A DNA stretch of 64,000 nucleotides from Candidatus Thorarchaeota archaeon (GCA_029855935.1 JAGSHN010000023.1:12157-76156); one strand, 5' to 3'. Positions 25,662-47,690 are shown, counted from the first letter of the stretch. Numbers and translations: made by a program. The notes: a model not told the origin generated them from the letters alone.

Positions 25662-26258
25662 CTAGGAGTTGCGGGAAGATCTCAACAGACTCACTGACTC
25701 AAGCACCTTTCTAATCCATTGCTTCGAGTACTTTTGTTTGAGTGCTGCTACTATGTCAACAATCGTGTCAAAGTCGCGTTCGTTGAACACTCTCTTCACA
25801 AACAGCGCTGTGGCAATCACTGACAGCTGTGTTGCGGTATATGATCCAAACTCCTCGACTAGCGTATCAATCACCTTCATTTCATTTTCGGCTAGGAAAC
25901 TAGCGAGCTCGGCTTCTCTCTTAGGAGAAATGAAATACCCCTTGTCAGAGTCCCACAAGATCCTAAGCCATCCCATTGCCTGAGCCAAGTTGGTAAAACT
26001 TGTCACCTTCGGAGAGTATGGTCCGTAGTGATACAGCGAATACCCAAGGTCCGTGCCGCCCTTCGCATCAAACAAGTACATTAGTTTCTGGATTTTTGTT
26101 CTCCCTATTTGCTTGTCAGGATGTCTTGCATATAATTTCCTTACGAGATAGTAGACCAGAGCAGGACCCTTTAGCAGACTCTTCATCTCTTCACAGACCT
26201 CCAGTATCCCTTGCTCGTTCCAGATCAGACGCATTGACATAGATTCTCGTCTTTGCAT
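25662..26258 (-). CDS. Panacea-domain (DUF4065/SocA-like) protein.
   Basis: TKIQKLMYLFDAKGGTDLGYSLYHYGPYSPKV matches the Panacea core (KLQKLLY...GPYSP). The start is uncertain (M at 26258 or 26240). It overlaps the 3' end of the upstream HD gene by 50-68 nt. Confidence 0.65.
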   Translation of the reverse strand: MQRRESMSMRLIWNEQGILEVCEEMKSLLKGPALVYYLVRKLYARHPDKQIGRTKIQKLMYLFDAKGGTDLGYSLYHYGPYSPKVTSFTNLAQAMGWLRILWDSDKGYFISPKREAELASFLAENEMKVIDTLVEEFGSYTATQLSVIATALFVKRVFNERDFDTIVDIVAALKQKYSKQWIRKVLESVSLLRSSRNS

Positions 26259-27447
26259 ATTTGCCTTGTAGTGCTTCCACTATGGGGGAATACGTTGAGA
26301 GAGGATAAATACGCCCCTCTTCTTTCTGAATGACCTGAATCTCTTCATTCTCAAGCCCATACCAAGTATTCATCTCTCTAAGACTATCCTCCCAGTACCA
26401 TATTCCGTTTGCGGAGAGCTTTGACTTCAGCCTGCTCAGCCTATCCTGTTCTTCTGATTGTATGCAAAGACCCCTTGTTTCATATAGAACTCGGGGGTGG
26501 TCTCTATTAATGATTCTTGTTAGTTCATCTTGCGCCTCTTGTCTCATGAGCTCCCACGCTGAGTAGTCATCAATCATCAGGAAGTCTTGGATGTCCTTTG
26601 GCGATGGAAGTTGGACTATTGCTTGTTTCAGTGCCTGTTGAAGAAGGTAGTCATATGCTCGTCGAGTTTTGTGACAATACACTTGGGTGAACATATGGTA
26701 CCTAGAAATAAGCAATGACTCCGCAATGTGCCATCCACCCTTCCTTACGCCAAGAACAACATCGCCGGTCTCAGGATCGACACCAAGTCCAAGAGTAACA
26801 ACTAGTCGCTCCAAGTCATAGATGCCATACTTGACTCCTGCGTGCAGAGAGTCTCTCAGGAGGTAGTCACATCGGTCGGCATCAAGCTGACTTGATATCA
26901 GAACCTTCCAAAATAGTCTTCCCTTGAGCCTCTTGGGGTTCCCGATTATCAAGTCTGCTATTTCTTCAGATTGGATTCCGTAGTTCTGGTTCAAGGGATG
27001 GTCTTCGATGACTTGCTTCAGTGGTCCATTGATGATTGAGACAGTATAGTCTTCGTGCTTATACTGCCTTCCAGTGGTCGGATTCGTTTGCATCAGTTCC
27101 TCGGACGCGTGAGAGAATGGCGGATGCCCCAGATCGTGAAGAAGCCCAGCAAGACGAACAATCTGGCGGTCCCTCTTGAAGCCAGCCTCCTCGTAGTCTA
27201 GATTGTCCCGAAGTATTCTCCTATTTTCTTCGTTTCCTATAATCGAGTCATACATTCGCGTTATCAGACGCATGACCCCGAGTGAATGTTCAAACCTAGT
27301 ATGAGTTGCACCAGGATACACCATGTCCGTCAGACCAAGCTGGCGTATTCTCCTAAGTCGCTGAATAGATGGGTGTGCTATGATCTCCTTTTCCCACTCA
27401 TTGAACTTCACGAAGCCGTATACTGGGTCTCGAACCTCGAACTTCAT
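26191..27447 (-). CDS. HD-domain phosphohydrolase, dGTPase/SAMHD1-like dNTP triphosphohydrolase family (COG1078).
   Basis: HTRFEHSLGV...LLHDLGHPPFSH...DADRCDYLLRDS are the canonical HD motifs of this family. The ORF is open to 27507, but the family consensus begins at MKFEVRDPVYGFV (27447). Confidence 0.85.
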   Translation of the reverse strand: MKFEVRDPVYGFVKFNEWEKEIIAHPSIQRLRRIRQLGLTDMVYPGATHTRFEHSLGVMRLITRMYDSIIGNEENRRILRDNLDYEEAGFKRDRQIVRLAGLLHDLGHPPFSHASEELMQTNPTTGRQYKHEDYTVSIINGPLKQVIEDHPLNQNYGIQSEEIADLIIGNPKRLKGRLFWKVLISSQLDADRCDYLLRDSLHAGVKYGIYDLERLVVTLGLGVDPETGDVVLGVRKGGWHIAESLLISRYHMFTQVYCHKTRRAYDYLLQQALKQAIVQLPSPKDIQDFLMIDDYSAWELMRQEAQDELTRIINRDHPRVLYETRGLCIQSEEQDRLSRLKSKLSANGIWYWEDSLREMNTWYGLENEEIQVIQKEEGRIYPLSTYSPIVEALQGKYAKTRIYVNASDLERARDTGGL

Positions 27448-28669
27448 CACGATATCCACACCCCAGCGCCACACTTCTTCACGTTGCGATATGTGCCCCG
27501 ATTGCAATACGGAATAAATGAGGATGAAATTCCAGACAAACAGAGAACAAGATCAGAATCACTTCTTGAGCCCTGACGTTCGCAAGATGGTCGTATTCCA
27601 ATCCAATTCCAAAACGTGAAACTCACAGGTGATGTATGGCCCTCTCTTTTGGCAGCCCGTTCGGCTACGCCAGTTCGTACGAGCACCGTATTCTTCGTGA
27701 TTGACGTCATGGTCACTGTTCGCATACTCCCCAAGATTCGTTGTCAGCCCACTTTCCCGCTCGAATGAGCAGAATACAGGGTACGAACACCATATGAATA
27801 CTTGTGCGATCCTGGCAGCCAGTTGAGGGAATCCGCAACTCTTCTATTTCAATCCACTGTCAAGAAAACGGCTGGGGCTACAATGACACGGTCCCGACCA
27901 CGAACCGCAGTCAAGCCCTCCATTGCCTGAGGGCCTAATAGTGACTCCGAAATTGATGCTGCGCACAACAAGATGACTGACCAAACAATCTCCCAGAGGG
28001 GGTATCGTTGCCTGTGGTCCGAGGAGCAAAGTTGCTATCACAACGAAAGCTCAGTGTGGCTGTAGCTGAGCTACTCAACCCGATCTACCTTACGAATCGT
28101 ATGCACACGGGCATTGCCATATCCTTCCTAGACCGAGCGTTCCGCCTAGCAGATTTCGGTAGCGGGTCGAAGTACCTCTCGGCTACTCCAAGCGTATCGG
28201 GGAGCAAACGTGCATAACCACCGGACTTCGTTCATTCCTGTTCAAGCGCAGCAATGGTGTCATCGTCAAACTCTTTGACATCATCGGAGAACCCAAGAAG
28301 GCTGCAAGCCTAGCGCTCCCAGCTTCCACAACGTGTTTCTTCCTGCTTGAGCCAACCGTTCACGTAGGCAGTTCAATTATTGACGAGAGTAAGCAACAGC
28401 ACCGCCTGCCCACAGGTCAACAGAGTTGAAAAGTAGCTGGATAGCAAAGACATCCGAGCGCTTTGATAGGCTCAGCCCACATAGGGGCTTGAGAAGAATG
28501 CCCGTATTGCCAGAAATCACCAAGCCCCTGGGAATTGGATAGACACAGACGCTCGACTGCTAGCCAAGTCACATCAACTGCAAGACAGCCAAGGAATGGG
28601 TGAAGGCGCAGGTAGAACTATGGGAGTTTTGTCACCATAGGCGAGACATCAGAAACAAACGTTGATTGT

Positions 28670-29149
28670 CTAGCCAATCAACGTGAATCCGTCAAAGATA
28701 CTGCAGCCGCAAGGTACTATCCGCAAAGGGAAACTAGGCGTTCCCAGAATCCTCTTTACCAGAGACAAGTTATTCGCAACAAAATCGCATATGTTCTGTG
28801 GGAGAACCAATATGTGACGGTAGTTGGGATTTCTCACGCCCATGCAGTCCAGCAACCCACCAAGAAATCCTTCAGTTTCCTTGAACTTGCTATCAAGACT
28901 GCGGATGGCTTCAGAAAAGGTTGATTCCTCAGCAATGTTCTTGAGTTCCACCAGGAATGCGGTGCATTTGTCATCCTCGAACATAACGTAGACTACATCG
29001 CAATGGGCCAAGTGCATTCTCCCAAGTTCCGCGTACTTCTCGAAGTTGAGAACCAGAAAGGGCAGACCGCCCTTGAGGATGATTTTGCAGTCATTCTCTT
29101 CATACTCGGCTTCCATTCTCGGCCCATTCGTCGTCCCCGGCACGTTCAT
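28670..29149 (-). CDS. Small protein with a PD-(D/E)xK-like nuclease motif, the putative partner of the upstream ATPase.
   Basis: HCDVVYVMFEDDKCTAFLVELKN contains D-hydrophobic-strand ... E-L-K. It is 159 aa, and its start overlaps the stop of the 29100-30833 ATPase. Confidence 0.4.
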   Translation of the reverse strand: MNVPGTTNGPRMEAEYEENDCKIILKGGLPFLVLNFEKYAELGRMHLAHCDVVYVMFEDDKCTAFLVELKNIAEESTFSEAIRSLDSKFKETEGFLGGLLDCMGVRNPNYRHILVLPQNICDFVANNLSLVKRILGTPSFPLRIVPCGCSIFDGFTLIG

Positions 29150-30833
29150 CGTCTCCTAAGCCTAGCGCCCACTCCAGCAGAATATCTATGACATCCGTCA
29201 GACTGGGAATGTGCTTTGTTAGCTCATCTGCGGGAACTTCTGATACTTCAACTCCTTCCTTCTCAGGCTTGTAGTAGTAGAACCGGATGTCAAGATCCCC
29301 TGCTCGCGCAGCGTATTCTGACAGAAGCTCAAGAGGACCGCCCTCAACAGGCACCCTCTGCATCTCCAGGAGCCTCTCTATCAGCTCACGGATCTTCTCG
29401 CTGCTGGGTCGGTGTATCTTTATGTATGCTAGGATAAGAACGATGAGGTCACTGTGGGTACTGAAAACCACTTGGTGCTCGTACTTGCTTGCAAGCGCCG
29501 CCAGAGTCAACCCCATCAGCAATTGAGCGGCATAGTGTAGTTGAGCCTCGGGCTCCTCTATGATGATCCTTGATCTTGGACGCGTCGAGAGAACTGGCAA
29601 CAGAATTCCCGCAACTTCTCCGGCCAGGGCCGAGGCCGAGTTCATTGGCACGGCGCACGCACCCGTGGAATAGAATAGACCCTTCGCCCTTTCGTAGGTA
29701 AGTCTGCCTTGAAGAACCGGAAGAAATAGCTCAATTGCTTCCTTGTCGTAGGAACCGTCGGCAATCTTGGATCTGCCCAGGCTCAGCCACGATATGTAGG
29801 AATGCAGAACGACATCTGACTCATACAGTGTGCTGTAGCCACGTCTGTCTCTTCGAATCGGTTCTTGCGAGAGGAGTTCTAGCTGGTTGATGACGAGGCT
29901 TCGTCCGAATGGAATGAAACGTACTTCCTCTAGACCGTATGACTCAGCATACGCAGCCCTGAGCGGTTGACATATTGACTCGTCTACGAATTCCAGAAGC
30001 ACGTCATCCAGCCACAATTGGATACGGTGGGGAAGGAAGGAACCTAGGACATAGCCAGGCCTGCTGGCCCTCTGGAGAATCTGACTGACTGTGGCCTCCG
30101 GACTCTTTGCCGACGAAGCAATCTTCTTCAGTTCGTCCAGCACGTTCTTCGAGAAGACCCTCTCAACCGCCCTACTGCTGGCCCTCATCGAGAATCTGAG
30201 CTCCAAAGCAATTGCAACTACTCCTTCGGGTTTCAGGTCAAATGAAACGTTCGCTTGACAGATCGTATTCCTCCTCAGGTCACCAAATTTCTCAGCATAA
30301 CTACGTGGCTCCGTAGAACTCTCAGCAATCAAGTCAAGGAACTCCGGCATTGATACCGAACTATCCAGTTTCGAGTCATCTCTCACCAAGACGATATCCC
30401 GATAGAAGTCTAGATTGGGCCGCAGCAAACTATCGACAGGAATGACGCCAGAGGCCTCTATGGTAAAGTTGAGAGTGCCATCTTCGGAGCGCCAGCGAAC
30501 GTTTTCCGCACCAGTCTGTTCTCTGAAAACCTCAGCGAGATTCGGTACTTGACTCTCTAAGCCTTCAAGGCCCAACGCGTACAACGCTACCAGCGCGTAC
30601 AAAGCCCTCAGCGAGTTTCGCAGATTCAGAGGCGGATAGTCCACATCATACGTACTTAGTAGGTTACGGAACTCAAACTCGCGTGCGTGCTCATCGAGCA
30701 TTAGAGTCGAAGCATACAAGGCTCTGAGGGTATACGACTTCCCCGTATTAGGCGGCCCGAACACGACAGTTATGTCGCCAATCTCTATATCCGCCGATCG
30801 TATCGGGCCCAAGTTCTCTATGTGGAATCCCAC
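29100..30833 (-). CDS. AAA_21/ABC-type (OLD/RecF-like) ATPase.
   Basis: Walker A is VFGPPNTGKSY. The C-terminal RIIIEEPEAQLHYAAQ...VVFSTHS carries the Walker B/D-loop and H-loop typical of AAA_21 ATPases of defence systems. Confidence 0.8.
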   Translation of the reverse strand: MGFHIENLGPIRSADIEIGDITVVFGPPNTGKSYTLRALYASTLMLDEHAREFEFRNLLSTYDVDYPPLNLRNSLRALYALVALYALGLEGLESQVPNLAEVFREQTGAENVRWRSEDGTLNFTIEASGVIPVDSLLRPNLDFYRDIVLVRDDSKLDSSVSMPEFLDLIAESSTEPRSYAEKFGDLRRNTICQANVSFDLKPEGVVAIALELRFSMRASSRAVERVFSKNVLDELKKIASSAKSPEATVSQILQRASRPGYVLGSFLPHRIQLWLDDVLLEFVDESICQPLRAAYAESYGLEEVRFIPFGRSLVINQLELLSQEPIRRDRRGYSTLYESDVVLHSYISWLSLGRSKIADGSYDKEAIELFLPVLQGRLTYERAKGLFYSTGACAVPMNSASALAGEVAGILLPVLSTRPRSRIIIEEPEAQLHYAAQLLMGLTLAALASKYEHQVVFSTHSDLIVLILAYIKIHRPSSEKIRELIERLLEMQRVPVEGGPLELLSEYAARAGDLDIRFYYYKPEKEGVEVSEVPADELTKHIPSLTDVIDILLEWALGLGDDERAGDDEWAENGSRV

Positions 30834-31646
30834 GGGGAGCTCCCTCGGTGGGGACGTGCTCGTTCTCCGAACAATAAGGCTTTCGATAGAGGGCTGCAGG
30901 AGACTATGTCACGAGCGGACTGGGCGGCACGTAAGAAACCGGTTTTCTCATTAGAACGGCATTCCCGAAGACCAAGGCATCGCACGCCCCTGAGCCGCCC
31001 CTTTGCTTAGCTACATTGTCACGAAAATGCAAACTCTGTGCACAGATGTGCAACGAGAGAGCAAGCGTCGACACATCAGGTACAGCAGTATGAGGGCCAG
31101 ACAGTTGACCAACGCCAGTGCGGGCCACGTCCTCAAGAGAAAAGATACTCAAACTCATTGAACGGACACACTTGACGGTCTACATCTAGAACGTGAAAGT
31201 GCCCGCGGCTGCCACCGGGTACACGCGGTAGAAGTGGAAGAGTAGTCAAACTCCGGGACCAATTCCAAATGTGACAGTTCAACAGCAAGCGCGCCTGCAA
31301 ACACAAGGTGAAAGACATAGTCATCGCTCGGAGAAGATCTCTCCCCGTACGATGTGCAGCTCCAGAATCTGCCCTATTCTACGACTCTTCAGGCATTCGT
31401 TCCGTCTTCTCGTGGCGGGGATAGACGCAGGACCTGATTGTACCAACAAGCACGGGCGGAGACCCCGACTCGACCCGGTCACGAGTACAGCGTTAGAAAC
31501 AGCCTTGGTCGAAGAATCGACTATGGCATTGGAACTCCATCATCAAATCAGCCCGCTAAATTCAGGTTTCCGCTGTCCCTGGAGTGCTCTTCTCCAAAGA
31601 AACGACTCGCTGTTGGCCAGCCATCGGGTTTCGCAGACGCCTGTCA

Positions 31647-32858: not shown

Positions 32859-34778
32859 GTGAAACTCAAATCAGTCCACGTGAAGCACTTTCGATGCATC
32901 CGGGACCAGACCCTGAATTGCGAGGACCTCACAATACTCGTTGGTCCGAACGGCTCTGGAAAGTCTTCCTTTCTCAGGGCCCTCGACCTGTTCTATTCCA
33001 CTTCGCCAAGTTATGCACAGGATGACTTCTACGGCCGAGACACGGACACACCCATAACGATCACGGTCACATTCTCGGAGCTGGACGATGACGAGCTAGA
33101 GCTATACAAGAGATACGTGCACAACAACGAGCTATCCATAACTCGAAAACTGGAATGGCCTCCCAGGAGAGGCTCGGCGAAATACCACGGGCTTCACAAA
33201 TGCAATCCCGACTTTGATGGATTTCGTAGGGCAAGTGGGTCGGATCTGCGCCGCGAGTACAATGCGCTACGTCAGGGCAAATATAGAGAACTCCCTCCGT
33301 ACTCCAACAAGGATGCTGCTGAAGGAGCGCTCAAGGATTGGGAGGATAGGAATCCGGACAGATGTGAGATTAGGGAGGACGATGGCCAGTTCTTCGGATA
33401 TACCGCAGTAGGCAAGTGGGTCCTGGAGAAAGGAACACGATTCTTTCTTGTGCCGGCCGTGAGGGACGCAGCCCTTGACGCTAGAGAAGGCAAAGGAAGT
33501 CCGTTCTCGGAGATAATGGACATAGTCGTGAGAAGTACTCTGAAAGATGCCCCCAGCTGGCAAGATCTTCAGAATCTCGTAAGAGAAGAGTATCGCAAGG
33601 TAATTGGTCCCATCCGGGAGGAGAAGCTGGAACAGATAAAATCCGAACTGATGGAGATTCTGCAGACATACGTGCCAAGCGGGAGCGTAGAGATAGACTG
33701 GGACGTTGAAACAGATCCGGAGATTCCAGCACCAAGAGCTACCGTAAGGCTTGCAGAAGACGAGTTCTATTCTCCTGCGGAGCTTTGCGGTCACGGCCTA
33801 CAGAGGGCACTGACCCTGGCGATGCTCCAGCTCCTTGCCAGAATTCGTACTCGGCTCGGATCAGACGAAACGCCGAACGAACCAACCTTCATCATCGCAA
33901 TTGAAGAGCCTGAGGCATATCAGCATCCCAACAGGCAGCGCCATCTGGCAAGAGTCCTCGTCGATCTTGCAGAAAATGGGCTTCCTGGTGCTGCTGAGAG
34001 AATCCAGATTATCTGTACAACACACTCGCCTCTATTCGTAGATATGGCAAACTGCCACAGAGTTCGCAAGCTGAGAAAGATCAAGACACAGACCAACGCA
34101 CCTCCCGAAACAGTGGTTGTTTCGACCAATCTTGACACTCTGGCCCGTGAGTTAGAGCAGATTGACGGCAAGGCTCAGGGAACGTATAGTGAGAAATCAG
34201 TATTGTCGCGGCTGAGAGCAGTGATGACCCCTCAATTGAACGAGGGATTCTTTGCTGATGTAGTGGTCCTCGTGGAGGGAGAAACTGATCGGGCGGCTAT
34301 CCTTGCAGTGGCAAGGATGCTGGGTCACGATCTTGAGGCATTGGGCATATCTGTGCTCCCGTGCTCAGGGAAAGGGAGCCTAGTCGGTCCTGCCGTTGTC
34401 TTCAGGAGTCTCGACATACCAATATACCTTGTCTGGGATGCCGACACGCAGTCCGGGGGCTCCGGACAGGACGATCCTCACAACAGAAAGCTCTTCCGCC
34501 TGATGACTGGCACAGCCAATGGCTCCCCGGGCACAATTGCTTCGACGTATGCCTGTCTGCAAACCAACCTTGAGGAAACCATTAGGACGGAGATTGGTGG
34601 TGACGTATTCGATCCCATAGTGGAGCGGTGGCGCAAGGAGCACGGAATGAAGAGAAACGCCGCAGTCAAGCGAGCTGCTGCAATTGAGGAGATTCTCAAT
34701 CAGGCCGCACAACAGGGAAGAAGATGCCAGACAATCGAGGAGATTGTCACACAGATAGTCAAGCTTGTTGAACAATAG
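32859..34778 (+). CDS. OLD-family ATP-dependent endonuclease (AAA_21 ATPase + Toprim).
   Basis: GTG start. Walker A is VGPNGSGKSSFLRALD. IIAIEEPEAYQHP is the Walker B/D-loop, followed by TTHSP. The C-terminal Toprim is DVVVLVEGETDRAAILAVAR ... YLVWDADTQSGG (E + DxD). Confidence 0.85.
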   Translation: MKLKSVHVKHFRCIRDQTLNCEDLTILVGPNGSGKSSFLRALDLFYSTSPSYAQDDFYGRDTDTPITITVTFSELDDDELELYKRYVHNNELSITRKLEWPPRRGSAKYHGLHKCNPDFDGFRRASGSDLRREYNALRQGKYRELPPYSNKDAAEGALKDWEDRNPDRCEIREDDGQFFGYTAVGKWVLEKGTRFFLVPAVRDAALDAREGKGSPFSEIMDIVVRSTLKDAPSWQDLQNLVREEYRKVIGPIREEKLEQIKSELMEILQTYVPSGSVEIDWDVETDPEIPAPRATVRLAEDEFYSPAELCGHGLQRALTLAMLQLLARIRTRLGSDETPNEPTFIIAIEEPEAYQHPNRQRHLARVLVDLAENGLPGAAERIQIICTTHSPLFVDMANCHRVRKLRKIKTQTNAPPETVVVSTNLDTLARELEQIDGKAQGTYSEKSVLSRLRAVMTPQLNEGFFADVVVLVEGETDRAAILAVARMLGHDLEALGISVLPCSGKGSLVGPAVVFRSLDIPIYLVWDADTQSGGSGQDDPHNRKLFRLMTGTANGSPGTIASTYACLQTNLEETIRTEIGGDVFDPIVERWRKEHGMKRNAAVKRAAAIEEILNQAAQQGRRCQTIEEIVTQIVKLVEQ

Positions 34779-34976
34779 GTTCGTCTAGTCACGCCAAGAT
34801 GCGAAGTCCTTTCGACTACGACTCTCAGAAACCTCAGAGTATGTCCGGATAGACAGTACCTCTCTCGTATGCCGAGAGGTTCCCAGCGGTGACAATCCGC
34901 CGACGATGGACGCGACACGGGCAATAGCCCCGAGATTCCCATAGACGTAGGACAGGCTATGTGCCAAAACCTCTAA

Positions 34977-36065
34977 ATGCCCCTTGGGCACACAATCGTT
35001 GAGGGGTCATCTCTGAGGGTACTCCACACGTCGGATCTCCATCTCAGTGCGGGCAACCCGCGCACACTCGAAGCCCTCGAACACATTCTAGATGTGGCAA
35101 GGCAAGAGAACGCAGATATCGTCACCATTGCTGGTGATATGTTTGACTCTGCCAGAGATGCAAACGAACTGCGGCCACAGCTAAGAGATCTGCTATCCGA
35201 AAACGGCTTTGAGATCCTTGTCCTCCCCGGGAACCACGACGCCACGGCCTTTACCCAGAATACATTCTACGGCAATGATGTGTTCCCGCTGATCGATAAG
35301 CCTGTTACTGTCAGAGAATATGAAGACCTCCTCATCGCGGGCGTGCCATTCCGCGAGAGGCTGGACGATGATGTAGCACTCCGAATTCGAGAAGTTTCGG
35401 ACTTCACAGGCACGAAGATCCTCTTGCTGCACTGCACCCTCGATATCGGCCTCGGGAGCGGTGGCTTCGGCGAAGAAGAGGCGATTCGCTACATGCCTGT
35501 GTCTTCAGCCAAGCTGGCCGGGCTCGGTTTCGACTACATCCTGGCTGGCCATTTTCACTCTTCGCTGCACGAACAGAAGCTTGCAAGCGGAGGACTGTTC
35601 GTCTACCCGGGGTCACCAGTCTCTCTGACAAGGAAGGAGCGAGGGCGGCGATCCGCCTATCTCATTGACACTGAGAGCAAGAAGACGCAGGCCATAGAGC
35701 TCTCTACGTTCTACTGTGATGAGCTCGAGGTCACAATCTCGCCGGGTACAGAGAAGGCGTGGGTCGAACAAATCGAACAATGGGCCAAGCATCACAAAGG
35801 AAAGAACTGTGACGTCAGGGTCATCGCGAAGGGGTTCACCGAGATGCCAGAGGCTGAGCTGAAACAACAGATTGAGGCTGCAGCCGGGGGAATTCACGTT
35901 GACTTTCGCGTCCGTGGCATTGAGAACATCCTCCGATACCCCATATATCAGAGATTCAAGCAGCGACTTCTTAATGATGATGGGATCGACGACAAGGAGA
36001 GGGTAGATATGATGATGCTCACGGTCGTGTCTCGACTGGCGGAAGAGGGGGAGCTTGACCTATGA
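34977..36065 (+). CDS. Calcineurin-like metallophosphoesterase, SbcD/Mre11-like nuclease.
   Basis: The phosphoesterase motifs are present in order: LHTSDLHL, AGDMFD, GNHD, LLLHCTL, GHFH. 362 aa. Confidence 0.85.
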   Translation: MPLGHTIVEGSSLRVLHTSDLHLSAGNPRTLEALEHILDVARQENADIVTIAGDMFDSARDANELRPQLRDLLSENGFEILVLPGNHDATAFTQNTFYGNDVFPLIDKPVTVREYEDLLIAGVPFRERLDDDVALRIREVSDFTGTKILLLHCTLDIGLGSGGFGEEEAIRYMPVSSAKLAGLGFDYILAGHFHSSLHEQKLASGGLFVYPGSPVSLTRKERGRRSAYLIDTESKKTQAIELSTFYCDELEVTISPGTEKAWVEQIEQWAKHHKGKNCDVRVIAKGFTEMPEAELKQQIEAAAGGIHVDFRVRGIENILRYPIYQRFKQRLLNDDGIDDKERVDMMMLTVVSRLAEEGELDL

Positions 36066-38065
36066 GGTTGAAAGAGCTCAACATCATCCGATATGGACCC
36101 GTGAGGGACCGCAGGCTCACGTTTGAGGAGAGCGTCAATCTCATCTACGGCCCGAACGAGTCCGGCAAGACACTCTCAATAGATGCCCTGATCAAGCTCC
36201 TCCTTGGACGGGAGAGAATCCAGAGATGGGACATCGACCGTGTCGAGTCAAAGCCCAACGGGTACGCAATCATAGAGATTGGGGGCGAAGAAATAGAGCT
36301 CACCGGCTCCAAGTCATTGATTGACGTAATCGAGATGGATGACACCGAACTTGCAGTAGACGACCTGAGAAACGTGTTCATCATTCGAGACTCGGACCTT
36401 CGAACTCACGATTCCCCCAGGTATTTCGAAACGCTTGTGGATCGGGTATCGGGAGCACGACTTGCGGAGATCGAGAAGATAATAGAAGAACTCGAGAGAG
36501 AGGGACGCATAACACCGAAAGGTCAACTCACGGATCGTCAAGACACGGGAAAGCTCGCAACTCGTGTCCGAGATGCCCGCAAACTGTTGAACGCGATTGA
36601 GGAGTTTTTCCAAAGACCGGAAACGCATGAATATGAGGAATTGGAATGGGAGTTTGTCAGGAAAAAGACCCGACTAGAAATCTTGAAACAACACTGGGAG
36701 CGACTTGAGCAAGCCAAAGAGCTGTACGAAGCTGTTGAGATTCGAAACAGTATCAGTGTCATTGAGGGACTCTTGAAGGAACGACAGCGATACGACAGGA
36801 GCCAAATCAGCAATCTAAGGACAAAGGCAGAACAGGCTAGGGCTGAGTGTGAGTTCATTGAGGCGAGCAAAGAAAAGATTGAATTCTTGTCCAGAACGGT
36901 ACTCGTCTTTGCATTTCTGTCGATGATTGCCCTGGTTCTGGCAGTGCTTGTGAATCCGTTGGCTCTAGCAGGTCTAGTTGTGTTCGCAGTCCTGACAACG
37001 CTTCACGTGGGAAGAATTCTGTCAATCAAGGACGACGAAGCCAAGTTTAGGTCCAAGGCTCACACTCTTCTGATGGAGGCTAGGGCTGTTGGTATCAAAT
37101 GCGATGACGTGGATGCACTATGCGAGAAACTCCGAAGCGTCTTGGACCGCGCGGACGAGGTCCATAACAAACTGATAGGACATTGGTCGGTCTTGGCAGA
37201 CAAGTTCAACTTGCCAATGGATGCAAACCCCGAGGACCATCTCCCTTCGATAAGAAACGATATCGAAATGAGACTCATGGCACACAAAGGTATTGATGCT
37301 GACAACTTCGATTCAGAAGAGTACGAGAGAGTTAGGCAAGAAATGCGCGAACTCGGCGAAGAGATTGAGGGATATGAGAAGAAACTTGAGTACTACCGGG
37401 ATAAGCTTCAGGAATTTGAGCGCACAACGAACCATGTACTAAGAGCTGATTTTTCCGGCAGTGATGGGGGCTTGGAAATAGGCTCTCTTGAAGCACTGAG
37501 GGCAGCTCGGTCGAAACTAGAAGAGTTCATAGATCGGGTCGAGACCCGTGCCGATACCGCTAGAGAGGCAATCAAGATACTCAAGGAGGTGCGCAATGAA
37601 GAGAGAAGCTCAATAGGCAATCTCTTCAAACCCGATGGACCTGCAACCCGCACCTTCGCAAGAATCACGAAGGGGGCGTATTCGGAGGTGCTGGTGAACA
37701 GGGACGGGTCAGCAATCCACGTCCGTCGGGCCGGAGGAGAGCTCATTCCCCTTGAGAAGCTGAGCAGGGGAGCAACCGACCAGCTCTATCTGTCAGTACG
37801 GATTACGCTTGCGAAAGAGATTCTGGGAGAAGAGCCGGGGTTCTTCGTCATGGATGATCCCTTCTTGGCCTCAGATATGGGTAGGCTACGTGAGCAGGTA
37901 AGCATATTGAAGGAGCTGGCCCAAGAGGGATGGCAGATCATCTACTTCACCTCCAAGGAGGAAGTGGTGACCGCGTTCAGGGAGATGGTGGGCGTTAAAG
38001 CGAAGTCATTGAATACGCTTCAGGGCCTGATACCGCCAGAGGAAGTTTCCCAAGCGGAGCCGTGA
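36062..38065 (+). CDS. SbcC/Rad50/SMC-like ATPase with a central hydrophobic hairpin.
   Basis: The start overlaps the upstream stop by 4 nt (ATGA). Walker A is YGPNESGKT. A long charged coiled-coil follows. The C-terminal LSRGATDQLYLSVRITLA is signature-motif-like, and FFVMDDPF is Walker B. Residues around 275-320 (LVFAFLSMIALVLAVLVNPLALAGLVVFAVLTTLHV) form two predicted TM helices where a Rad50 zinc hook would normally sit. Confidence 0.8.
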   Translation: MRLKELNIIRYGPVRDRRLTFEESVNLIYGPNESGKTLSIDALIKLLLGRERIQRWDIDRVESKPNGYAIIEIGGEEIELTGSKSLIDVIEMDDTELAVDDLRNVFIIRDSDLRTHDSPRYFETLVDRVSGARLAEIEKIIEELEREGRITPKGQLTDRQDTGKLATRVRDARKLLNAIEEFFQRPETHEYEELEWEFVRKKTRLEILKQHWERLEQAKELYEAVEIRNSISVIEGLLKERQRYDRSQISNLRTKAEQARAECEFIEASKEKIEFLSRTVLVFAFLSMIALVLAVLVNPLALAGLVVFAVLTTLHVGRILSIKDDEAKFRSKAHTLLMEARAVGIKCDDVDALCEKLRSVLDRADEVHNKLIGHWSVLADKFNLPMDANPEDHLPSIRNDIEMRLMAHKGIDADNFDSEEYERVRQEMRELGEEIEGYEKKLEYYRDKLQEFERTTNHVLRADFSGSDGGLEIGSLEALRAARSKLEEFIDRVETRADTAREAIKILKEVRNEERSSIGNLFKPDGPATRTFARITKGAYSEVLVNRDGSAIHVRRAGGELIPLEKLSRGATDQLYLSVRITLAKEILGEEPGFFVMDDPFLASDMGRLREQVSILKELAQEGWQIIYFTSKEEVVTAFREMVGVKAKSLNTLQGLIPPEEVSQAEP

Positions 38066-38249: not shown

Positions 38250-39008
38250 CTACTCGTATATCTCCGAGATACTCGCAATCTCTCTCATCAGAAGCGTGAT
38301 CTCGTCTAATAGCTCTTCACCCTCGTCGGGGTCCTGGGTCCGTATGAGCTTGTCCTCATACATCCGGATAAGTCGCACCAGCTTCCTGTATCGCGGTAGA
38401 GGGAACTGTTCGGGGATCTCACCGAAGATGTAGCCCCGTTGTGGGGACAGATGTTCCTCGGCCGCTATATTTGCAATTTGAGTGATGGGAACCCAGATCT
38501 CCGCCAGAGTCCCGTCGTCATCTTCACTCGCCTTAAAGTAGGCCCCAATCTCGACGTCGTACTCGCCAAGGGTGCCTCGCAGTATGCTATCTGCGCGGAC
38601 GTATCTCCATCCTCTTGCCCGTTTCTTCTTTCGGAGGGCAACAACTATCTCAACCTCACCGTCCTCACGGTTTTCGCGAATGTACTCGCGGTCATCCTCA
38701 CTGAGGCGGCAGGTCGGCGGTATTCCCCCAAAGTCGGTGTGAGAATGAAACTCGCCGACTATGAAGTCCCAAGACAGAAACGCCAAGACCTCCTCAATAC
38801 GGGCATATCTGCGGAAATTCGGCTCCACTGATGTGTATCGTCGCTCGGAGGACTGGAGAGCCACAACTGAGTTGACCACAACTTTGCCCGCCGAACCGAA
38901 GATGTCGCCCATCAATACACCTGTACATTCGCGCTTGTAGACCTCAATCGCATACCCGAGCATCTGTGCAAAGGCAGGTGCCCGGACGAAGACTGTTTCA
39001 ATCTCCAA
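38250..39008 (-). CDS. JAB/MPN (JAMM) domain metalloprotease-like protein with a C-terminal extension.
   Basis: EVYKRECTGVLMG followed by GEFHSHTDFGGIPPTCRLSEDD matches the E...HxH...S..D JAMM pattern with slightly longer spacing. 252 aa. Confidence 0.55.
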   Translation of the reverse strand: MEIETVFVRAPAFAQMLGYAIEVYKRECTGVLMGDIFGSAGKVVVNSVVALQSSERRYTSVEPNFRRYARIEEVLAFLSWDFIVGEFHSHTDFGGIPPTCRLSEDDREYIRENREDGEVEIVVALRKKKRARGWRYVRADSILRGTLGEYDVEIGAYFKASEDDDGTLAEIWVPITQIANIAAEEHLSPQRGYIFGEIPEQFPLPRYRKLVRLIRMYEDKLIRTQDPDEGEELLDEITLLMREIASISEIYE

Positions 39009-39531: not shown

Positions 39532-40059
39532 TCACAAGAATTTTCTCACGAAGTACCTGAAAGATTCACTTCTACGTTGTGCAAGCGAGGGGTCGAATCT
39601 CTCGATGATTCTATTCATAAATACCGAACGCGGTATCGACTGCGGTATTATGATATTGAACCACTGTTTTGTGACACGTGGCGGAATCGCGAGCCTCCTG
39701 ACACCAGCAATCTGCCGAAGAATTTCTCTCTCAATTCCCGCGACATACCACGCCTCTATCTCGGGTATGACAACTACTATGCGCTGCTCGTCCCCAATCC
39801 CATATCGTCCGGCTATTTGGTTTCTCAGTGCCGTCACACAGGGATAGCGATCCAGATCCCGAACAAGGACATACTCAGTACTCTTCCGTTCCAAGGTATG
39901 AATGAATTTCCGAATTTTCCTTTTCTCCATCTGAGCGTACTTGACGATTTGAACACGATCATAGTGTTTCTCAAGACGTGAACAAAGGATTCTCCTGAAG
40001 AAGCGTTCGTCGTCATCCCCTTCGACGAAGACATAGAAAGACGACATTTCTTTCGACAC
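39532..40059 (-). CDS. Small Toprim-like (DUF4276/RloB-like) protein, partner of the upstream AAA_21 ATPase.
   Basis: The N-terminus FYVFVEGDDDERFFRRIL resembles the hhhVEGxTE start of DUF4276/RloB-type Toprim proteins. Its start is 2 nt after the ATPase stop. 175 aa. Confidence 0.5.
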   Translation of the reverse strand: MSKEMSSFYVFVEGDDDERFFRRILCSRLEKHYDRVQIVKYAQMEKRKIRKFIHTLERKSTEYVLVRDLDRYPCVTALRNQIAGRYGIGDEQRIVVVIPEIEAWYVAGIEREILRQIAGVRRLAIPPRVTKQWFNIIIPQSIPRSVFMNRIIERFDPSLAQRRSESFRYFVRKFL

Positions 40060-40061
40060 CG

Positions 40062-41360
40062 CTACTGCAGAATGCCCTGCACGAATAGGTCATCCACACC
40101 GAGATCGTTCTCCAGAAACGCCATTACCTCCTCGTCATTTCTTGGACGCGTGACCTGCGAATATCCATCCTCGTCCCGCGTAACAAGGAGAAGGTTATCA
40201 ATACCAGCGTGCTTGACCACTTCGGGGTTGTGCGTTGTAATTATCACCTGTTTGTTCATTCGGCTCGAGACCTCTTTCATCATATTCACAATCTTCGAGA
40301 TGAGTAGAGGGTGAATGTTTCGCTCGGGCTCCTCTATGATAACGAGAGGGTTCTTTTCGAAATACAATGCGATTACCAACGTTGTGACATTCACCGTACC
40401 ATCTGAGATCAGAAAGGCTGGCAGGAACCGTTTCTGTGAATAGATCTCTCTGATGCTGGCGAGAAGCGATTTGTCCGGAAGTCTCTCTACCGTGAAGTCC
40501 TCTACGAGTGGCAGGACATCCTTCACTAATGACGAGATCAGGTCCCGGTCTCGCTTATTATCCAAGATGCGCTTCAGAATCAGGGGCAGATTGCTACCGT
40601 CTGGCTCAAGCTCGGTCTTGCCAGTGACGGGAGTTGCACGTTTCATAAGTCGCGGATCAAAATCGTAGATAGAGATGTTACGCAGATAGTGTGCCAAGCT
40701 CGAATAGAACGGTGAAAGAAGGACTGGATCTTCAATGGAGAGTCTTCGTGGGCGCGGACGGGCAGCATATCTCATATCTCGCGCTAGAGACAGGTAGAAG
40801 AAGCGTTCTATGCGTGTGTCCGAGAGGGAATCAGACATTTCCATCGTCACTCTGCGACCATCATTGATAGTAGTGATAGTGCCTTTGCGAACTTCTCCAC
40901 GGAGCGCATCACCACCGTTCGGCCGGCGAGTCCCGTATTCACACACTGCCGTGAGTTTGTCCGACACTCCCGAGTAGTCCAGTTTGCGTTTGTAGAACCT
41001 GATTGAGAGTTCGTAATCGTACCGACTGACGGAGAGATAGGCATCTCGAGATATCCGCAAGATGTCTCTTGCTTCGAGTGAGAGTTGGATGGACAGGTCA
41101 CGCAAAGAACCTATGGCAAGATTGCGTAAGTAGGCCACTCCACCTTGCATCGAAATAGCGTTCTCCAACCCCATCGTGGTGATATCCTTGAGGAACCGGA
41201 ACAGGGCGATAAGATTGGATTTTCCTGAGGCGTTCGGTCCGACTATCACGTTGAAGTCGCCCAACTCAATCTCCGTTTCATTGAAGGTCCTGAAATTGCT
41301 CACCCTTATTCTTCGGATCCTCGTTGTGTCCTTCGGTCGCATAGGTTGGGAACCTCCCAA
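40062..41360 (-). CDS. AAA_21/ABC-type ATPase.
   Basis: Walker A is VGPNASGKSNLIALF. The C-terminus LVIIEEPERNIHPLLISKIV...VIITTHNPEVV carries Walker B, Q/H-loop features. Confidence 0.8.
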   Translation of the reverse strand: MGGSQPMRPKDTTRIRRIRVSNFRTFNETEIELGDFNVIVGPNASGKSNLIALFRFLKDITTMGLENAISMQGGVAYLRNLAIGSLRDLSIQLSLEARDILRISRDAYLSVSRYDYELSIRFYKRKLDYSGVSDKLTAVCEYGTRRPNGGDALRGEVRKGTITTINDGRRVTMEMSDSLSDTRIERFFYLSLARDMRYAARPRPRRLSIEDPVLLSPFYSSLAHYLRNISIYDFDPRLMKRATPVTGKTELEPDGSNLPLILKRILDNKRDRDLISSLVKDVLPLVEDFTVERLPDKSLLASIREIYSQKRFLPAFLISDGTVNVTTLVIALYFEKNPLVIIEEPERNIHPLLISKIVNMMKEVSSRMNKQVIITTHNPEVVKHAGIDNLLLVTRDEDGYSQVTRPRNDEEVMAFLENDLGVDDLFVQGILQ

Positions 41361-41811: not shown

Positions 41812-42825
41812 TTGAAGTATACAGCCGAAGACGAGGAGAGGAATCGCACCTACTATGTCGCGTTGAACAAATCGCGCAATGATCTATTCCACCCGTACAA
41901 CAACAAGGGCGGAGGCACACTGGAGTGGGACAACGATTTCAGGGACAGGGTTCGCGAGGCCAAGGCCTTGCGGAGGACCAATGGATTGATTGAAGAGTTG
42001 GATTCGCCACCCAAGGCCCGGAAGTCGCTACCCACAAGGTCATTGAGGGTGATATACCGTCGGGACCCTGTCTTGGAGTCGATCGCGAGCAGATTCCTGC
42101 CCCGAGTCATCGATGCCACTCATATCTACGGTCTTCTGTTGTGTCCGCGCCGACACCAGTACGGTACACTGATGGGCGCAGCCGGGATGAAGTGCGACGA
42201 GGTTGAACGCAGCGAGTTCTCGCCGGCCTTCGGCTCTGTCCTACACAGTATGATCGCAGAGTTTGACTATGCCACGGGCTCCACTGAGAGCGCTCTCACC
42301 GTGCTCCATCAGGCTGAGTTCCTCACCGGCCCCGACAAGAAGAGGCTCCAGAATGCGATCACCTCGTACTCGGAGTTCACAGAAGAGATAGGTCTGAGGT
42401 CATCAGAGGGAGATCGAGTGTTGTCAGAGAGGGAGATCTACGGAACCATAGATGTGGACGGGCAAGTCATCGAGCTCCGCGGGGTCATCGACATAGCAGT
42501 TGTCCGATCCGACGGTAAGATCGACGTCTACGACGTCAAGACCAACTATCTGCCCCCTAGTGGCACTTCTGAAGAGAGGCTCAAGCGTGAGTTCCTGCGG
42601 AAACACCACGAACGTCAGCTCCTGACATACAAGTCAATGCTCGAACAACAGGGACACACTGTTGAAGGTGTCTACGTTGTGGCTGTATCAAAGAAGAGTG
42701 CAACCCAAGTCAAGTGGAACCTAGTTCAAGTTGACGATGCAGACTGGTCATTGCAAGAACTTTGTGAGATGCTGCCGATAACGGTCGAAGAAGAGGGACT
42801 CAGAAAGACTGAGAACAAGTACTGA
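41812..42825 (+). CDS. RecB-family PD-(D/E)xK nuclease-like protein.
   Basis: GVIDIAVVRSDGKIDVYDVKTNY contains D...D-x-K. The downstream QLLTYKSML resembles the RecB-family QxxxY motif. The N-terminal 200 aa are unassigned. Confidence 0.5.
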   Translation: MKYTAEDEERNRTYYVALNKSRNDLFHPYNNKGGGTLEWDNDFRDRVREAKALRRTNGLIEELDSPPKARKSLPTRSLRVIYRRDPVLESIASRFLPRVIDATHIYGLLLCPRRHQYGTLMGAAGMKCDEVERSEFSPAFGSVLHSMIAEFDYATGSTESALTVLHQAEFLTGPDKKRLQNAITSYSEFTEEIGLRSSEGDRVLSEREIYGTIDVDGQVIELRGVIDIAVVRSDGKIDVYDVKTNYLPPSGTSEERLKREFLRKHHERQLLTYKSMLEQQGHTVEGVYVVAVSKKSATQVKWNLVQVDDADWSLQELCEMLPITVEEEGLRKTENKY

Positions 42826-45911: not shown

Positions 45912-47690
45912 ATGAGCGAGTCACTAAACTCACGTTTCCTGCGCATCCAGCACATCCTAGAACGGGTTCACGAAGGCGACTACGTCCTTCCGGAGTTCCA
46001 GAGGAGCTTCGTATGGTCGAACTCCGACATCAAGGATCTTCTCGTTTCATGTCTGAACGGGTATTTCATTGGGACGTTCCTCCTTCTTAGGGGTGATGCG
46101 GCAAAGAGCTTTAAGACACGGTATTTCGAGGGAGTTCCCGAGGCCAATCCGCAAATCCCACGAGAGCCAGATGACAGGACTGTCGATCGAATTGTCTTGG
46201 ACGGGCAACAAAGGATAACTGCGGCATACTATGCCCTCTATGCGCCACCTGGTATCACACCCAAAGGGGCGTCATATCCCAGACGCTATCTCCTGAGGAT
46301 TGAGAACTGTCACGTCGGCGACATCGACTGGGAGGATCTCATAGAAGACTGGTCCGAGAACGAGAGCAGTCGAAAAGTCCCTCACTCGTCAGGTGCAGCT
46401 AGACTTAGAGAACTCATTCAGAAACATGATTTTGTCAACCTTCTGAACGATTCAGAGTTCCGCAAATACCTCTTCGAGAATCATCTTCTGCCGTTCGCGG
46501 TTCTGAAATCAGACTCAGATTTCTCAAGGTGGTTGGACGATTACGCGGACTACCTTGAGGAGAAGGGCATAGAAAAGGCTCAGGTGAGAGAACGGAAACA
46601 AGCCCTCCGAGAAAGACTGAAAAACGTGCTGAATTTCCAAGTTGCGGTTCTAGAGTTGGAGGAGAGGGACCTCGTCAAAGTCGTCGACCTCTTTGAGCGA
46701 ATCAACCGAACAGGTGTTGCTCTCTCTGTGTTTGCACTAGCTACCGCAGTCTACATGAAGGGAGGAGTAAACCTCCGCAGACTGTGGAGGGAGTTCTATG
46801 CAGCATCTCCTACAATTCAGCAGTTCTGTCAAGAGGATGATGAAACATATCCCAAATACGTTCTCCAAGTGATGGCTCTTCTCCAAGGCAAGGAGGTCAA
46901 GAAGAAAGTCCTGATTGACTCCAGACAGTTGAGTGTTACATCTGACCGATGGTCACAAGCCACGGAACTGCTCGAAAAGGCGCTCGACCGTGCAACAAGC
47001 ACGAGAAACGGTTATGGAGCAATCAAGTCAAATCTCCTACCTTATCGGTCGGCAATTGTCACTCTCGCTGCTCTTCTGGCCAAGTGCGGAACTGCTAGTG
47101 ACTTTGACAAGCTGGACGCTTGGTACTGGAGTTCCGTCTTCACAGCAAGGTATGCTGGGGCCAGCGAAACAGCGATCAAGCAAGACTATGACCAAGTATG
47201 TCGATGGCTGAAGGATGGTACCCAAGAACCAAGTGTTGTCACTGAAGCGGCGAATCGTGTTTCGAGTCACAAGCTCGAGAACATCAGAACTGGCGGTACC
47301 TACAAAGCCATACTTTGCCTCATCTCATTGGCTGGTGCAAAGGACTTCCTAACCGGACAGAGTCCCGAGCTAGGCTTGCTCAATGACCATCATATCTTTC
47401 CGAAATCATTGTATCGAGATAGACGCTCAGTTGATTCAATACTCAACCGGACACTCATTACCGACACGACAAATAGAGATATCTCGAATAAACGCCCGTC
47501 CGAGTATGTTCGGGAGATCATAAAGGCTCTTGGCGGGGAGGAGGACGATGCGAGAGATATGCTGAAGAGTCATCTGATAGACGATGAATGTTTCGAGGCA
47601 ATGAAACAAGATGACTATTCGCGCTTTATGGCCCGCCGGGCTGAGCTGATTCGTAGTGAGATGATTCGTCGAATCCGGTACGGGTCTTGA
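45912..47690 (+). CDS. GmrSD-family type IV (modification-dependent) restriction endonuclease, DUF262 + DUF1524.
   Basis: The N-terminal DUF262/ParB-like motifs are YVLPEFQRSFVW and DGQQRITA. The C-terminal DUF1524 His-Me finger is LNDHHIFPKS...NRTLITDTTNRDISNK. Confidence 0.85.
   Translation: MSESLNSRFLRIQHILERVHEGDYVLPEFQRSFVWSNSDIKDLLVSCLNGYFIGTFLLLRGDAAKSFKTRYFEGVPEANPQIPREPDDRTVDRIVLDGQQRITAAYYALYAPPGITPKGASYPRRYLLRIENCHVGDIDWEDLIEDWSENESSRKVPHSSGAARLRELIQKHDFVNLLNDSEFRKYLFENHLLPFAVLKSDSDFSRWLDDYADYLEEKGIEKAQVRERKQALRERLKNVLNFQVAVLELEERDLVKVVDLFERINRTGVALSVFALATAVYMKGGVNLRRLWREFYAASPTIQQFCQEDDETYPKYVLQVMALLQGKEVKKKVLIDSRQLSVTSDRWSQATELLEKALDRATSTRNGYGAIKSNLLPYRSAIVTLAALLAKCGTASDFDKLDAWYWSSVFTARYAGASETAIKQDYDQVCRWLKDGTQEPSVVTEAANRVSSHKLENIRTGGTYKAILCLISLAGAKDFLTGQSPELGLLNDHHIFPKSLYRDRRSVDSILNRTLITDTTNRDISNKRPSEYVREIIKALGGEEDDARDMLKSHLIDDECFEAMKQDDYSRFMARRAELIRSEMIRRIRYGS

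Follow-up and report, generated by a model that had tools for sequence, protein, structure and literature searches.

An OLD-family nuclease gene beside a Mre11/Rad50-like gene pair in an Asgard archaeal defence island: separable modules or facultative partners?

Introduction

Does an OLD-family nuclease encoded directly upstream of a Mre11/Rad50-like phosphoesterase and ATPase act together with them, or do these genes merely share a neighbourhood? The question is raised by a stretch of 64,000 nucleotides, hereafter the window, from a Candidatus Thorarchaeota archaeon (GCA_029855935.1, JAGSHN010000023.1:12157-76156), whose nearest relatives are metagenome-assembled genomes (MAGs) of Promethearchaeota (Asgard). 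Calling of open reading frames (ORFs) resolved three co-oriented genes on the + strand, namely OLD at 32859-34778 (639 aa, GTG start), the phosphoesterase at 34977-36065 (362 aa) and the Rad50-like ATPase at 36062-38065 (667 aa). The original prediction, made from the sequence alone, had described three such genes in a row with a 198-bp gap before the second and an ATGA stop/start overlap before the third, an SMC-like ATPase of 667 aa, and our gene calls recover all of these features. It had also offered two explanations, a new OLD class or an SbcCD/YhaON-like anti-plasmid module standing next to an OLD gene by chance.

Class 1 OLDs, which the window's OLD resembles, are the least understood OLD class, and their activation and use of partners are open questions. 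We lean towards reading the locus as two separable modules that stand side by side in a variable island, their juxtaposition perhaps favoured by an optional synergy or by a shared insertion habit. Each component belongs to a kind of protein that is already known. The recurrent context of OLD with a Mre11/Rad50-like (MR-like) pair appears to be undescribed, as does the archaeal breadth of the hairpin-type pair found here.

Distribution of the phosphoesterase-ATPase pair

A family-alignment scan using one genome per species yielded 80 loci with the pair, spread over Asgard archaea, Halobacteria, Bathyarchaeia, Hadarchaeota, Thermoplasmatota, Actinomycetota, Bacillota, Thermotogota, Chloroflexota, Patescibacteria and other groups at 31-86% identity. 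The ATPase gene directly follows the phosphoesterase gene in 78 of the 80, and in the other two the contig ends there. As a two-gene unit the pair is autonomous and has a wide distribution. All-vs-all clustering of neighbours across the 80 loci revealed no third gene conserved with it; the biggest neighbour cluster covered nine loci and reflects lineage-specific synteny. The 113 nearest neighbours are mixed and mostly housekeeping genes, a few of them related to DNA repair (methylpurine glycosylase at four loci, HerA-domain proteins at three). Nothing tested supports the "anti-plasmid" label that had been attached to the pair, whose immediate neighbours elsewhere are of this mostly housekeeping kind. 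An OLD-family hidden Markov model (HMM) placed a full OLD near the pair at one of the 80 loci (L010). More distant OLDs near the pair were rejected as candidates, the remaining matches being confined to the P-loop and falling on other ABC ATPases. The pair is absent from PADLOC models and from IMG/VR contigs.

Genomic contexts of the OLD subfamily

The OLD subfamily returned 2170 matches, most of the top ones ~45% identical to the window's protein and 640-690 aa long. The loci sampled comprise 80 from metagenomes (L085-L164), seven single-homologue look-ups, two viral contigs and two plasmids. The closest relatives of the window's OLD, at 82%, 54% and 50% identity, are standalone, the first with a methyltransferase gene downstream of it, the second with a radical-SAM gene downstream and the third among housekeeping genes. 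In two OLDs of the window's own subclade (L136:10104-11192 and L165:9257-10288) a radical-SAM gene likewise follows on the same strand, at L165 with a 190-aa ORF in between.

The commonest companion is a co-oriented gene of ~70 aa with a KTSC domain (PF13619, 6e-27), ~10 bp upstream of OLD in 23 of the 80 metagenomic loci and in three of four look-ups. Examples lie at L086:4780-4992, L174:6777-6989, L175:3147-3359 and L176:6775-6996. KTSC-OLD looks like a conserved two-gene unit, for which our literature search found no paper. Neither the window nor any OLD locus with an MR-like pair has this partner.

Members of the subfamily are also found wedged into other operons. OLD lies within DUF1156-methylase/SNF2/DUF499 loci in 12 cases, and in six or seven it separates the Mod (N6_N4_Mtase) gene from the Res (ResIII) gene of a type III restriction-modification (R-M) system. 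Examples of OLD inside other defence operons, with or without KTSC, are L095:5675-12495, L101:1419-17959 and 11 similar loci; some have the Mod/Res arrangement, and in others OLD lies in clusters with an SNF2/NOV_C helicase, Schlafen-AlbA_2, a DUF1156 methylase and DUF499. Since OLD sits as tightly in the R-M and DUF1156/SNF2 operons as beside MR-like pairs, tight co-oriented insertion may be the gene's general habit. A viral origin was considered and rejected: in IMG/VR the OLD subfamily occurs on only two contigs, neither with an MR-like pair, and the window's type of pair does not occur at all.

Sister genomes and the OLD-pair junction

Sister genomes carry the junction in two reciprocal states of decay. 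Two contigs with an OLD 82% identical to that of the window (L082 and L083) retain an intact OLD, the spacer and a 167-bp stub of the 5' end of the phosphoesterase gene, followed by unrelated defence cargo. A third (L002), whose phosphoesterase is 86% identical, retains the last 239 bp of OLD, riddled with stops, followed by the spacer and the pair; in three assemblies its ATPase gene carries a frameshift at one and the same position. Either module, then, persists in the other's absence. The OLD stub kept in both L002 and L083 indicates that the junction is old in this lineage. The OLD-to-pair junction is thus ancestral here, yet required by neither partner. In the sister genome the pair has a gene with a Piwi domain (prokaryotic Argonaute-like) on one side and RAMP (Cas-like) genes plus an ABC ATPase on the other (L002:1259-3352, - strand; L172:11151-15117).

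The junction between the OLD 3' end and the spacer occurs twice on L083 (5194-5802 and 15166-15411), with 73% identity between the copies. The second copy, ~10 kb downstream of the intact OLD, is a diverged OLD 3' stub, and between the two lie ~9.4 kb with further genes for defence and for toxin-antitoxin systems (N6_N4 methylase, Mrr_cat, PemK). This duplication fits an island that evidently rearranges by recombination across the OLD-3'/spacer junction.

With truncations and a frameshift in sister genomes and an island so highly rearranged, the triad itself might be taken for a decaying remnant that has lost its current function, whether through assembly-level or true pseudogenisation. We consider this the least probable of the readings, because all three ORFs in the window are full length, their catalytic motifs are all intact and the ATGA junction is preserved.

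OLD genes beside Mre11/Rad50-like pairs elsewhere

Six further loci, archaeal and bacterial and unrelated, have an OLD of the window's subfamily beside an MR-like pair. The window has OLD and then the pair, with gaps of 198 and -4 bp. A hairpin-type pair precedes OLD in Bathyarchaeia (L010), OLD is followed after 1.8 kb by an AAA_27-type pair in a metagenome (L102), and plasmid pTAV4 of Paracoccus versutus (L170) has OLD before the pair with gaps of 33 and -4 bp. The order is SbcD, SbcC (with zinc hook) and OLD at L120 (gaps -4 and 49), and OLD, SbcD and SbcC at L146 (gaps 9 and 11). On a Roseibium plasmid (L169) a pair of 423 and 1160 aa is followed by OLD and then by a PDC-S73-like gene. The pairs at L102 and L170 measure 375-397 aa plus 875-904 aa and are of AAA_27 type with neither hairpin nor hook, while those at L120 and L146 consist of a canonical-size SbcD (with SbcD_C) and SbcC (with a CPxC hook). 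An OLD clade specialised for such pairs was sought and rejected, because the neighbour-joining tree shows the MR-linked OLDs dispersed; the linkage events are therefore independent.

Several of these observations weigh against two modules that are simply neighbours. Counting the window, all seven loci are co-oriented and six of the seven are directly adjacent, with gaps of 9-381 bp; three pair subtypes in both gene orders look like selection for linkage. Both plasmid OLDs of the subfamily have an MR-like pair. Such a pair is held by three of the 80 metagenomic OLD loci (533 kb of flank) against ~0.2 expected, an expectation that rests on an assumed rather than measured density of ~0.4 pairs per Mb; the Poisson p is ~0.001 at that density, ~0.017 at 1 per Mb and ~0.09 at 2 per Mb. 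On L083 the modules may even still coexist, if a pair follows the second stub. Finally, a 2026 preprint (10.64898/2026.07.10.737580) reports that P2 OLD is triggered by unresolved DNA ends and single-stranded DNA hairpins, that SbcCD counteracts this activation and that deletion of sbcD potentiates OLD. This antagonism provides a plausible functional reason for co-encoding OLD and an MR-like pair. The OLD papers that were text-searched for SbcC, SbcD or Rad50 contain no mention of the association.

It is possible, though we doubt it, that the three genes make up a facultative and not-yet-described system of OLD plus MR-like complex. The complex would then be a sensor and processor of DNA ends or hairpins, licensing OLD or restraining it by clearing self structures, a role for which the GajB helicase accompanying GajA in Gabija offers a parallel. 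Seven co-oriented loci with three subtypes of pair, both orders and OLDs dispersed over the tree would fit such a system. So would the lack, in all seven, of the KTSC partner found in many relatives, the age of the junction implied by the OLD stubs in L002 and L083, and the reported genetic link between P2 OLD and SbcCD. The partner is, however, mostly missing. OLD accompanies one of 80 hairpin-type loci and just one of the 112 plasmid records that carry an L170-type pair, and an MR-like pair accompanies ~6% of ~92 OLD loci. OLD is found just as tightly, and more often, in R-M and DUF1156/SNF2 operons, each module survives the other's loss in sister genomes, and at the sequence level we see neither a conserved fusion nor a co-varying clade.

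The L170-type pair (L170:10080-13831), a 375-aa phosphoesterase with an 875-aa AAA_27-type ATPase, is itself common on alphaproteobacterial plasmids and chromids. Rhizobium accounts for 66 records, sphingomonads are also represented, and 65 records are conjugative. It is annotated merely as "DNA repair exonuclease / AAA family ATPase".

Rarity from either side, independent decay and equally tight insertion of OLD into R-M-type operons together argue against an obligate system. Three subtypes, both orders, uniform co-orientation and the presence of both plasmid and archaeal cases imply that the linkage is not pure chance. Two separable modules, with any synergy optional, remain the reading towards which we lean. 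Of the two explanations first offered, an SbcCD/YhaON-like module that happens to neighbour OLD fits most of the data (the two-gene unit at 78 of 80 loci, OLD present at one of the 80, standalone OLD relatives, losses in sister genomes). A new OLD class is not established, but it gains real support from the six further independent, co-oriented loci. Conservation of the neighbourhood, which had been put forward as the way to decide, came out low when viewed from the pair (OLD at one of 80 loci) and recurrent when viewed as OLD-MR adjacency (six further loci).

Identity of the pair

The phosphoesterase matches Metallophos (Pfam, 4e-16). All five Mre11/SbcD motifs that had been read in it are conserved in 30 homologues, where they are invariant or nearly so (H17/D20/H22, G53-D54, G85-N86-D88, H152, G191-H192-H194). 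Its AlphaFold 2 (AF2) model has a predicted local distance difference test (pLDDT) score of 90.7, and all 50 listed, top-ranked Foldseek matches in the PDB are Mre11/SbcD proteins, with E-values down to 3e-16 over ~320-350 columns that cover the nuclease and capping domains. A Pfam scan did not detect the SbcD_C domain.

The ATPase matches AAA_27 (1e-11; 45.4 bits against a cut-off of 22) and AAA_23 (3e-9). Rad50 is its top PDB match both by sequence profile (8e-14) and by fold, and in the AF2 model an antiparallel coiled coil interrupts the ABC head. Walker A (GPNESGKT, aa 30-37), signature (LSRGATDQL, aa 567-575) and Walker B (FFVMDDPF, aa 594-601) motifs are present. Where Rad50 has its H-loop His ("SHD" in P. 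furiosus), the alignment shows T-[A/S]-K for proteins of this family (FTSK at aa 628-632 of the window's ATPase), and replacement of this catalytic linchpin suggests slow or altered ATP hydrolysis.

A hydrophobic stretch of ~40-45 residues occupies the coiled-coil apex in 68 of 68 full-length ATPases, comprising one to four overlapping transmembrane-like windows (at least two in most). A CxxC zinc hook was found in none of the 68, nor in the window's protein. In the window this central hairpin is encoded at 36878-37027 (+ strand; aa ~273-322), where the AF2 helices 246-296 and 301-342 flank a turn, N-P-L-A (aa 297-300), that falls inside the hydrophobic stretch. We predict that this apex hairpin either anchors the protein in the membrane or serves for dimerisation through hydrophobic contacts.

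In B. subtilis, SbcE/YhaN has an sbcD-like gene upstream, lacks CxxC and has a conserved central domain that is hydrophobic and includes a key proline (PMC2811018). SbcE is located at the poles of competent B. subtilis cells. Most database homologues of the window's ATPase carry PF13514, and one has been named YhaN by the Joint Genome Institute. The pair matches the published description of SbcE and SbcF and is therefore filed as SbcEF/YhaON-like, a likeness to the Bacillus proteins that rests on that description; the archaeal ATPase is a third shorter. To our knowledge, a hook-less Rad50 relative of this kind with a hydrophobic hairpin has so far been known from one study of B. subtilis.

Could the pair nevertheless be the housekeeping Mre11-Rad50 complex for double-strand-break repair, with OLD an unrelated insertion beside it? 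We regard this as improbable, even though a Mre11 fold is combined with a Rad50-like head, the pair's neighbours elsewhere are mostly housekeeping genes with a few related to DNA repair, the pair is retained in eight Halosimplex species, and SbcEF of B. subtilis contributes to double-strand-break repair (PMC2811018). Equivalog models of NCBIfam for Mre11, Rad50 and SbcCD give 17-51 bits against cut-offs of 77-1087. In particular, the phosphoesterase reaches 51.5 bits for TIGR00619 (cut-off 77.65) and 17-49 bits for the SbcD/Mre11 equivalogs (434.6-750), and the ATPase 35-43 bits for the curated Rad50 models (700-1087). The zinc hook and the H-loop His are missing, the coiled coil is short, no herA or nurA adjoins the pair in the window, and the location is a low-GC defence island. 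Distribution is patchy over both domains at 32-45% identity, and a sister lineage has a frameshift in the ATPase gene. Haloarchaea with the pair are also known to carry a canonical mre11-rad50. The original prediction had named a housekeeping orthologue as the outcome that would speak against it, and the sub-threshold scores, the absent hook, the non-adjacent herA/nurA and the frameshifted sister gene all point the other way.

Identity and class of the OLD gene

The OLD gene was correctly anticipated to be full length, with an ATPase and a Toprim domain bearing the E/DxD residues. Pfam models AAA_15 (2e-40, aa 1-394), AAA_21 (6e-22) and OLD-like_TOPRIM (1e-16, aa 464-529) match, which, together with Metallophos, AAA_23 and AAA_27 in the pair, completes the HMM check of domains that had been proposed. 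The ABC ATPase part spans aa 1-395 (nt 32859-34043, + strand) and the Toprim part aa 464-532 (nt 34248-34454, + strand). Within PADLOC the Old model scores 1e-54 and the GajA models trail it by 25 orders of magnitude (best 1e-29); among solved structures the best match is Thermus scotoductus OLD, a class 1 protein (PDB 6p74, 3e-28). The ATPase residues (Walker A K35, G311-H312-G313, Walker B E350-P351-E352, H-loop H389) and the Toprim residues (E473, D477, D527xD529) are invariant in an alignment of 26 sequences.

By its sequence, and with no helicase, retron or split architecture, the window's OLD is class-1-like. Where class 1 is defined as stand-alone, close relatives agree, yet the subfamily has recurrent partners (KTSC in 23 of 80 loci, R-M-like operons and MR-like pairs). 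The remaining classes were each rejected. Class 2 is defined in the literature by a GajB gene directly downstream; here the downstream genes are the metallophosphoesterase and the Rad50-like ATPase, the GajA models are far weaker than Old, and the partner gene that membership in Gabija implies was not detected. For class 3 (retron-associated), no reverse transcriptase domain was found in ORFs of at least 80 aa between 28 and 43 kb, and Rfam gave no match in the window. Class 4 (PARIS AriA/AriB) does not fit an ATPase and a Toprim domain that sit in one 639-aa ORF. Class 5 (Cran1) is defined by vertical inheritance in Sulfolobales and an operon with a conserved membrane protein (PMC12796447); the source here is a Promethearchaeota MAG and the neighbourhood differs. 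Eleven uncharacterised OLD clades have also been reported (PMC12796447).

Spacer and expression

The spacer between OLD and the phosphoesterase gene (34779-34976, + strand, 198 bp) is kept in sister genomes and is about as conserved as coding sequence. Homologues of the phosphoesterase begin ~12 codons further in, at the position of a TTG codon in the window (L13), so the real gap may be ~234 bp if that start is used. A 7-bp inverted repeat (ACCTCTC-N9-GAGAGGT, 34858-34880) and a block just 5' of the phosphoesterase ATG (34953-34976; TGTGCCAAAACnnCTAAATG / TGTGCCAAAACnnCTAA) are conserved in the spacers of three diverged genomes and may be regulatory elements. A sigma-70/terminator scan, whose results were at or below shuffled expectation, detected no promoter or terminator inside the spacer, but this is a bacterial-type scan and not applicable to archaea; no Rfam match was detected in the spacer. 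Most likely the pair has its own promoter within the 198 bp, because L002 retains just that region upstream of it. The -4 bp ATGA overlap indicates, from the sequence, that the phosphoesterase and ATPase genes are translationally coupled.

Possible modes of action

By analogy with characterised class 1 OLDs, the window's OLD would be an ATP-gated enzyme whose ABC-ATPase part senses aberrant nucleic-acid structures and releases the Toprim nuclease. The fold and family of the pair suggest an M2R2-type, ATP-dependent clamp nuclease that would trim DNA ends or hairpins. Its apex is a hydrophobic hairpin and not a zinc hook, and the complex is therefore probably membrane-tethered or dimerised via the hairpin. 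Coiled-coil tips lodged in the membrane would place the pair at DNA entering the cell or lying at the envelope. Any cooperation between OLD and the pair would be optional; speculatively, the structures in DNA that trigger OLD might be cleared away, or else produced, by the MR-like complex.

We tentatively propose a broader hypothesis, to which we give limited credence: OLDs of this subfamily may have entered facultative partnerships with MR-like complexes of hook-type SbcCD, YhaON-like and hydrophobic-hairpin kinds, assembled independently several times in archaea and bacteria. If this were true, the complex would tune or license OLD by processing the DNA ends or hairpins that activate the nuclease. 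The arrangement would then constitute a sixth genomic context class of OLD and a natural counterpart of the SbcCD-P2 OLD antagonism described in 2026. A repeatedly evolved linkage would offer direct access, through genomes, to the interplay proposed for SbcCD and the activation of OLD. If nothing but proximity joins the modules, the locus is unremarkable, though tidy: one stretch of a defence island whose parts are shuffled. The spread of the hairpin-type pair in archaea, Asgard archaea included, raises the question of what role a membrane-tethered Mre11/Rad50-like machine has there.

The surrounding defence island

The triad had been placed in the middle of a defence island, which Pfam, PADLOC and NCBIfam scans of its neighbours bear out. 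G+C content falls to 0.47-0.54 over ~20-48 kb, compared with 0.55-0.59 in the flanks. A JAB/MPN-domain protein gene (38250-39008, - strand) is convergent with the Rad50-like ATPase gene; it is not conserved with the pair, the one match in 81 loci being the window's own copy. Farther out lie a Cas4-like PD-(D/E)XK nuclease gene (41812-42825, + strand), a gene for a GmrSD_N protein (GmrSD; 45912-47690, + strand) and a SocA/Panacea-domain protein gene overlapping that of a protein with HD and HD_assoc_2 domains (25662-27507, - strand).

The cargo also includes two further ABC-ATPase modules, as well as a HEC-01-like ATPase with a small Toprim-like protein. This last module, at 39532-41360 (- strand) and 1.5 kb from the triad, encodes a 432-aa ABC ATPase (PADLOC HEC-01A 4e-50; NCBIfam MAD3 4e-40, under its cut-off) and a 175-aa Toprim-like protein (DUF4276/DUF3226-like; HEC-01B 3e-8), and is a split ATPase-Toprim pair of the PARIS/AbiL kind. 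A module at 28670-30833 (- strand) encodes a 577-aa AAA_15 ATPase (PD-T4-4_A / PDC-M56A-like) whose gene overlaps a 159-aa partner ORF. The region of this ATPase (28786-30920) recurs beside the pair in L002 (8629-10476) at 79% nucleotide identity, which indicates that modules of the island are shuffled among relatives.

Comparison with known systems

Like the class 1 proteins P2 Old, Thermus scotoductus OLD and Vibrio cholerae OLD, the window's OLD is one polypeptide chain in which an N-terminal ABC ATPase is combined with a Toprim domain at the C terminus (E, DxD), lies in a variable neighbourhood and has no UvrD-type helicase, retron or split AriA/AriB. It differs in size, its subfamily measuring ~640-690 aa against 528 aa in Thermus scotoductus, and in belonging to a large, mostly uncultured archaeal and bacterial subfamily that often has KTSC upstream or is housed in R-M-like operons. 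Class 1 as defined in the review stands away from other defence genes, whereas this OLD sits in a defence island. Gabija similarly encodes an OLD-type ATPase-Toprim protein beside a DNA-end-acting ATPase partner. There the partner is a UvrD-like helicase; here it is a Mre11/Rad50-like pair, in a facultative association (~6% of sampled OLD loci).

Lamassu and Wadjet share with the pair an SMC/Rad50-like ATPase head and coiled coil in a defence context, and the window's ATPase has weak similarity to the LmuB model (2e-10, head region only, aa 1-112). The effector in the window is a Mre11-type phosphoesterase and the apex is hydrophobic, unlike in those systems, and Pfam and PADLOC scans detected no LmuA, LmuC or JetABD-type neighbour genes, so membership was rejected. 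No known defence system could be assigned: no PADLOC model fits the phosphoesterase or the OLD-adjacent MR pairs, and similarity is limited to the generic LmuB/mad3 head.

SbcCD and Mre11-Rad50 resemble the pair in the Mre11 nuclease and capping fold, in an ABC head interrupted by an antiparallel coiled coil and in the order of the operon, nuclease before ATPase with overlapping stop and start. They differ in that the window's pair has no zinc hook, a replaced H-loop His, a coiled coil of about half the length, no detected SbcD_C and scores far under the orthologue thresholds. SbcEF (YhaN/YhaO) differs in other ways, the window's pair being archaeal, located in a defence island and shorter in both proteins (ATPase 667 vs 963 aa; nuclease 362 vs 408 aa), with no yhaM-like neighbour detected. 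In both, an sbcD-like gene lies directly upstream of an SMC/Rad50-like ATPase gene whose product is of YhaN type (AAA_27) at its N-terminus, lacks a CxxC hook and contains a conserved proline within its hydrophobic central domain.

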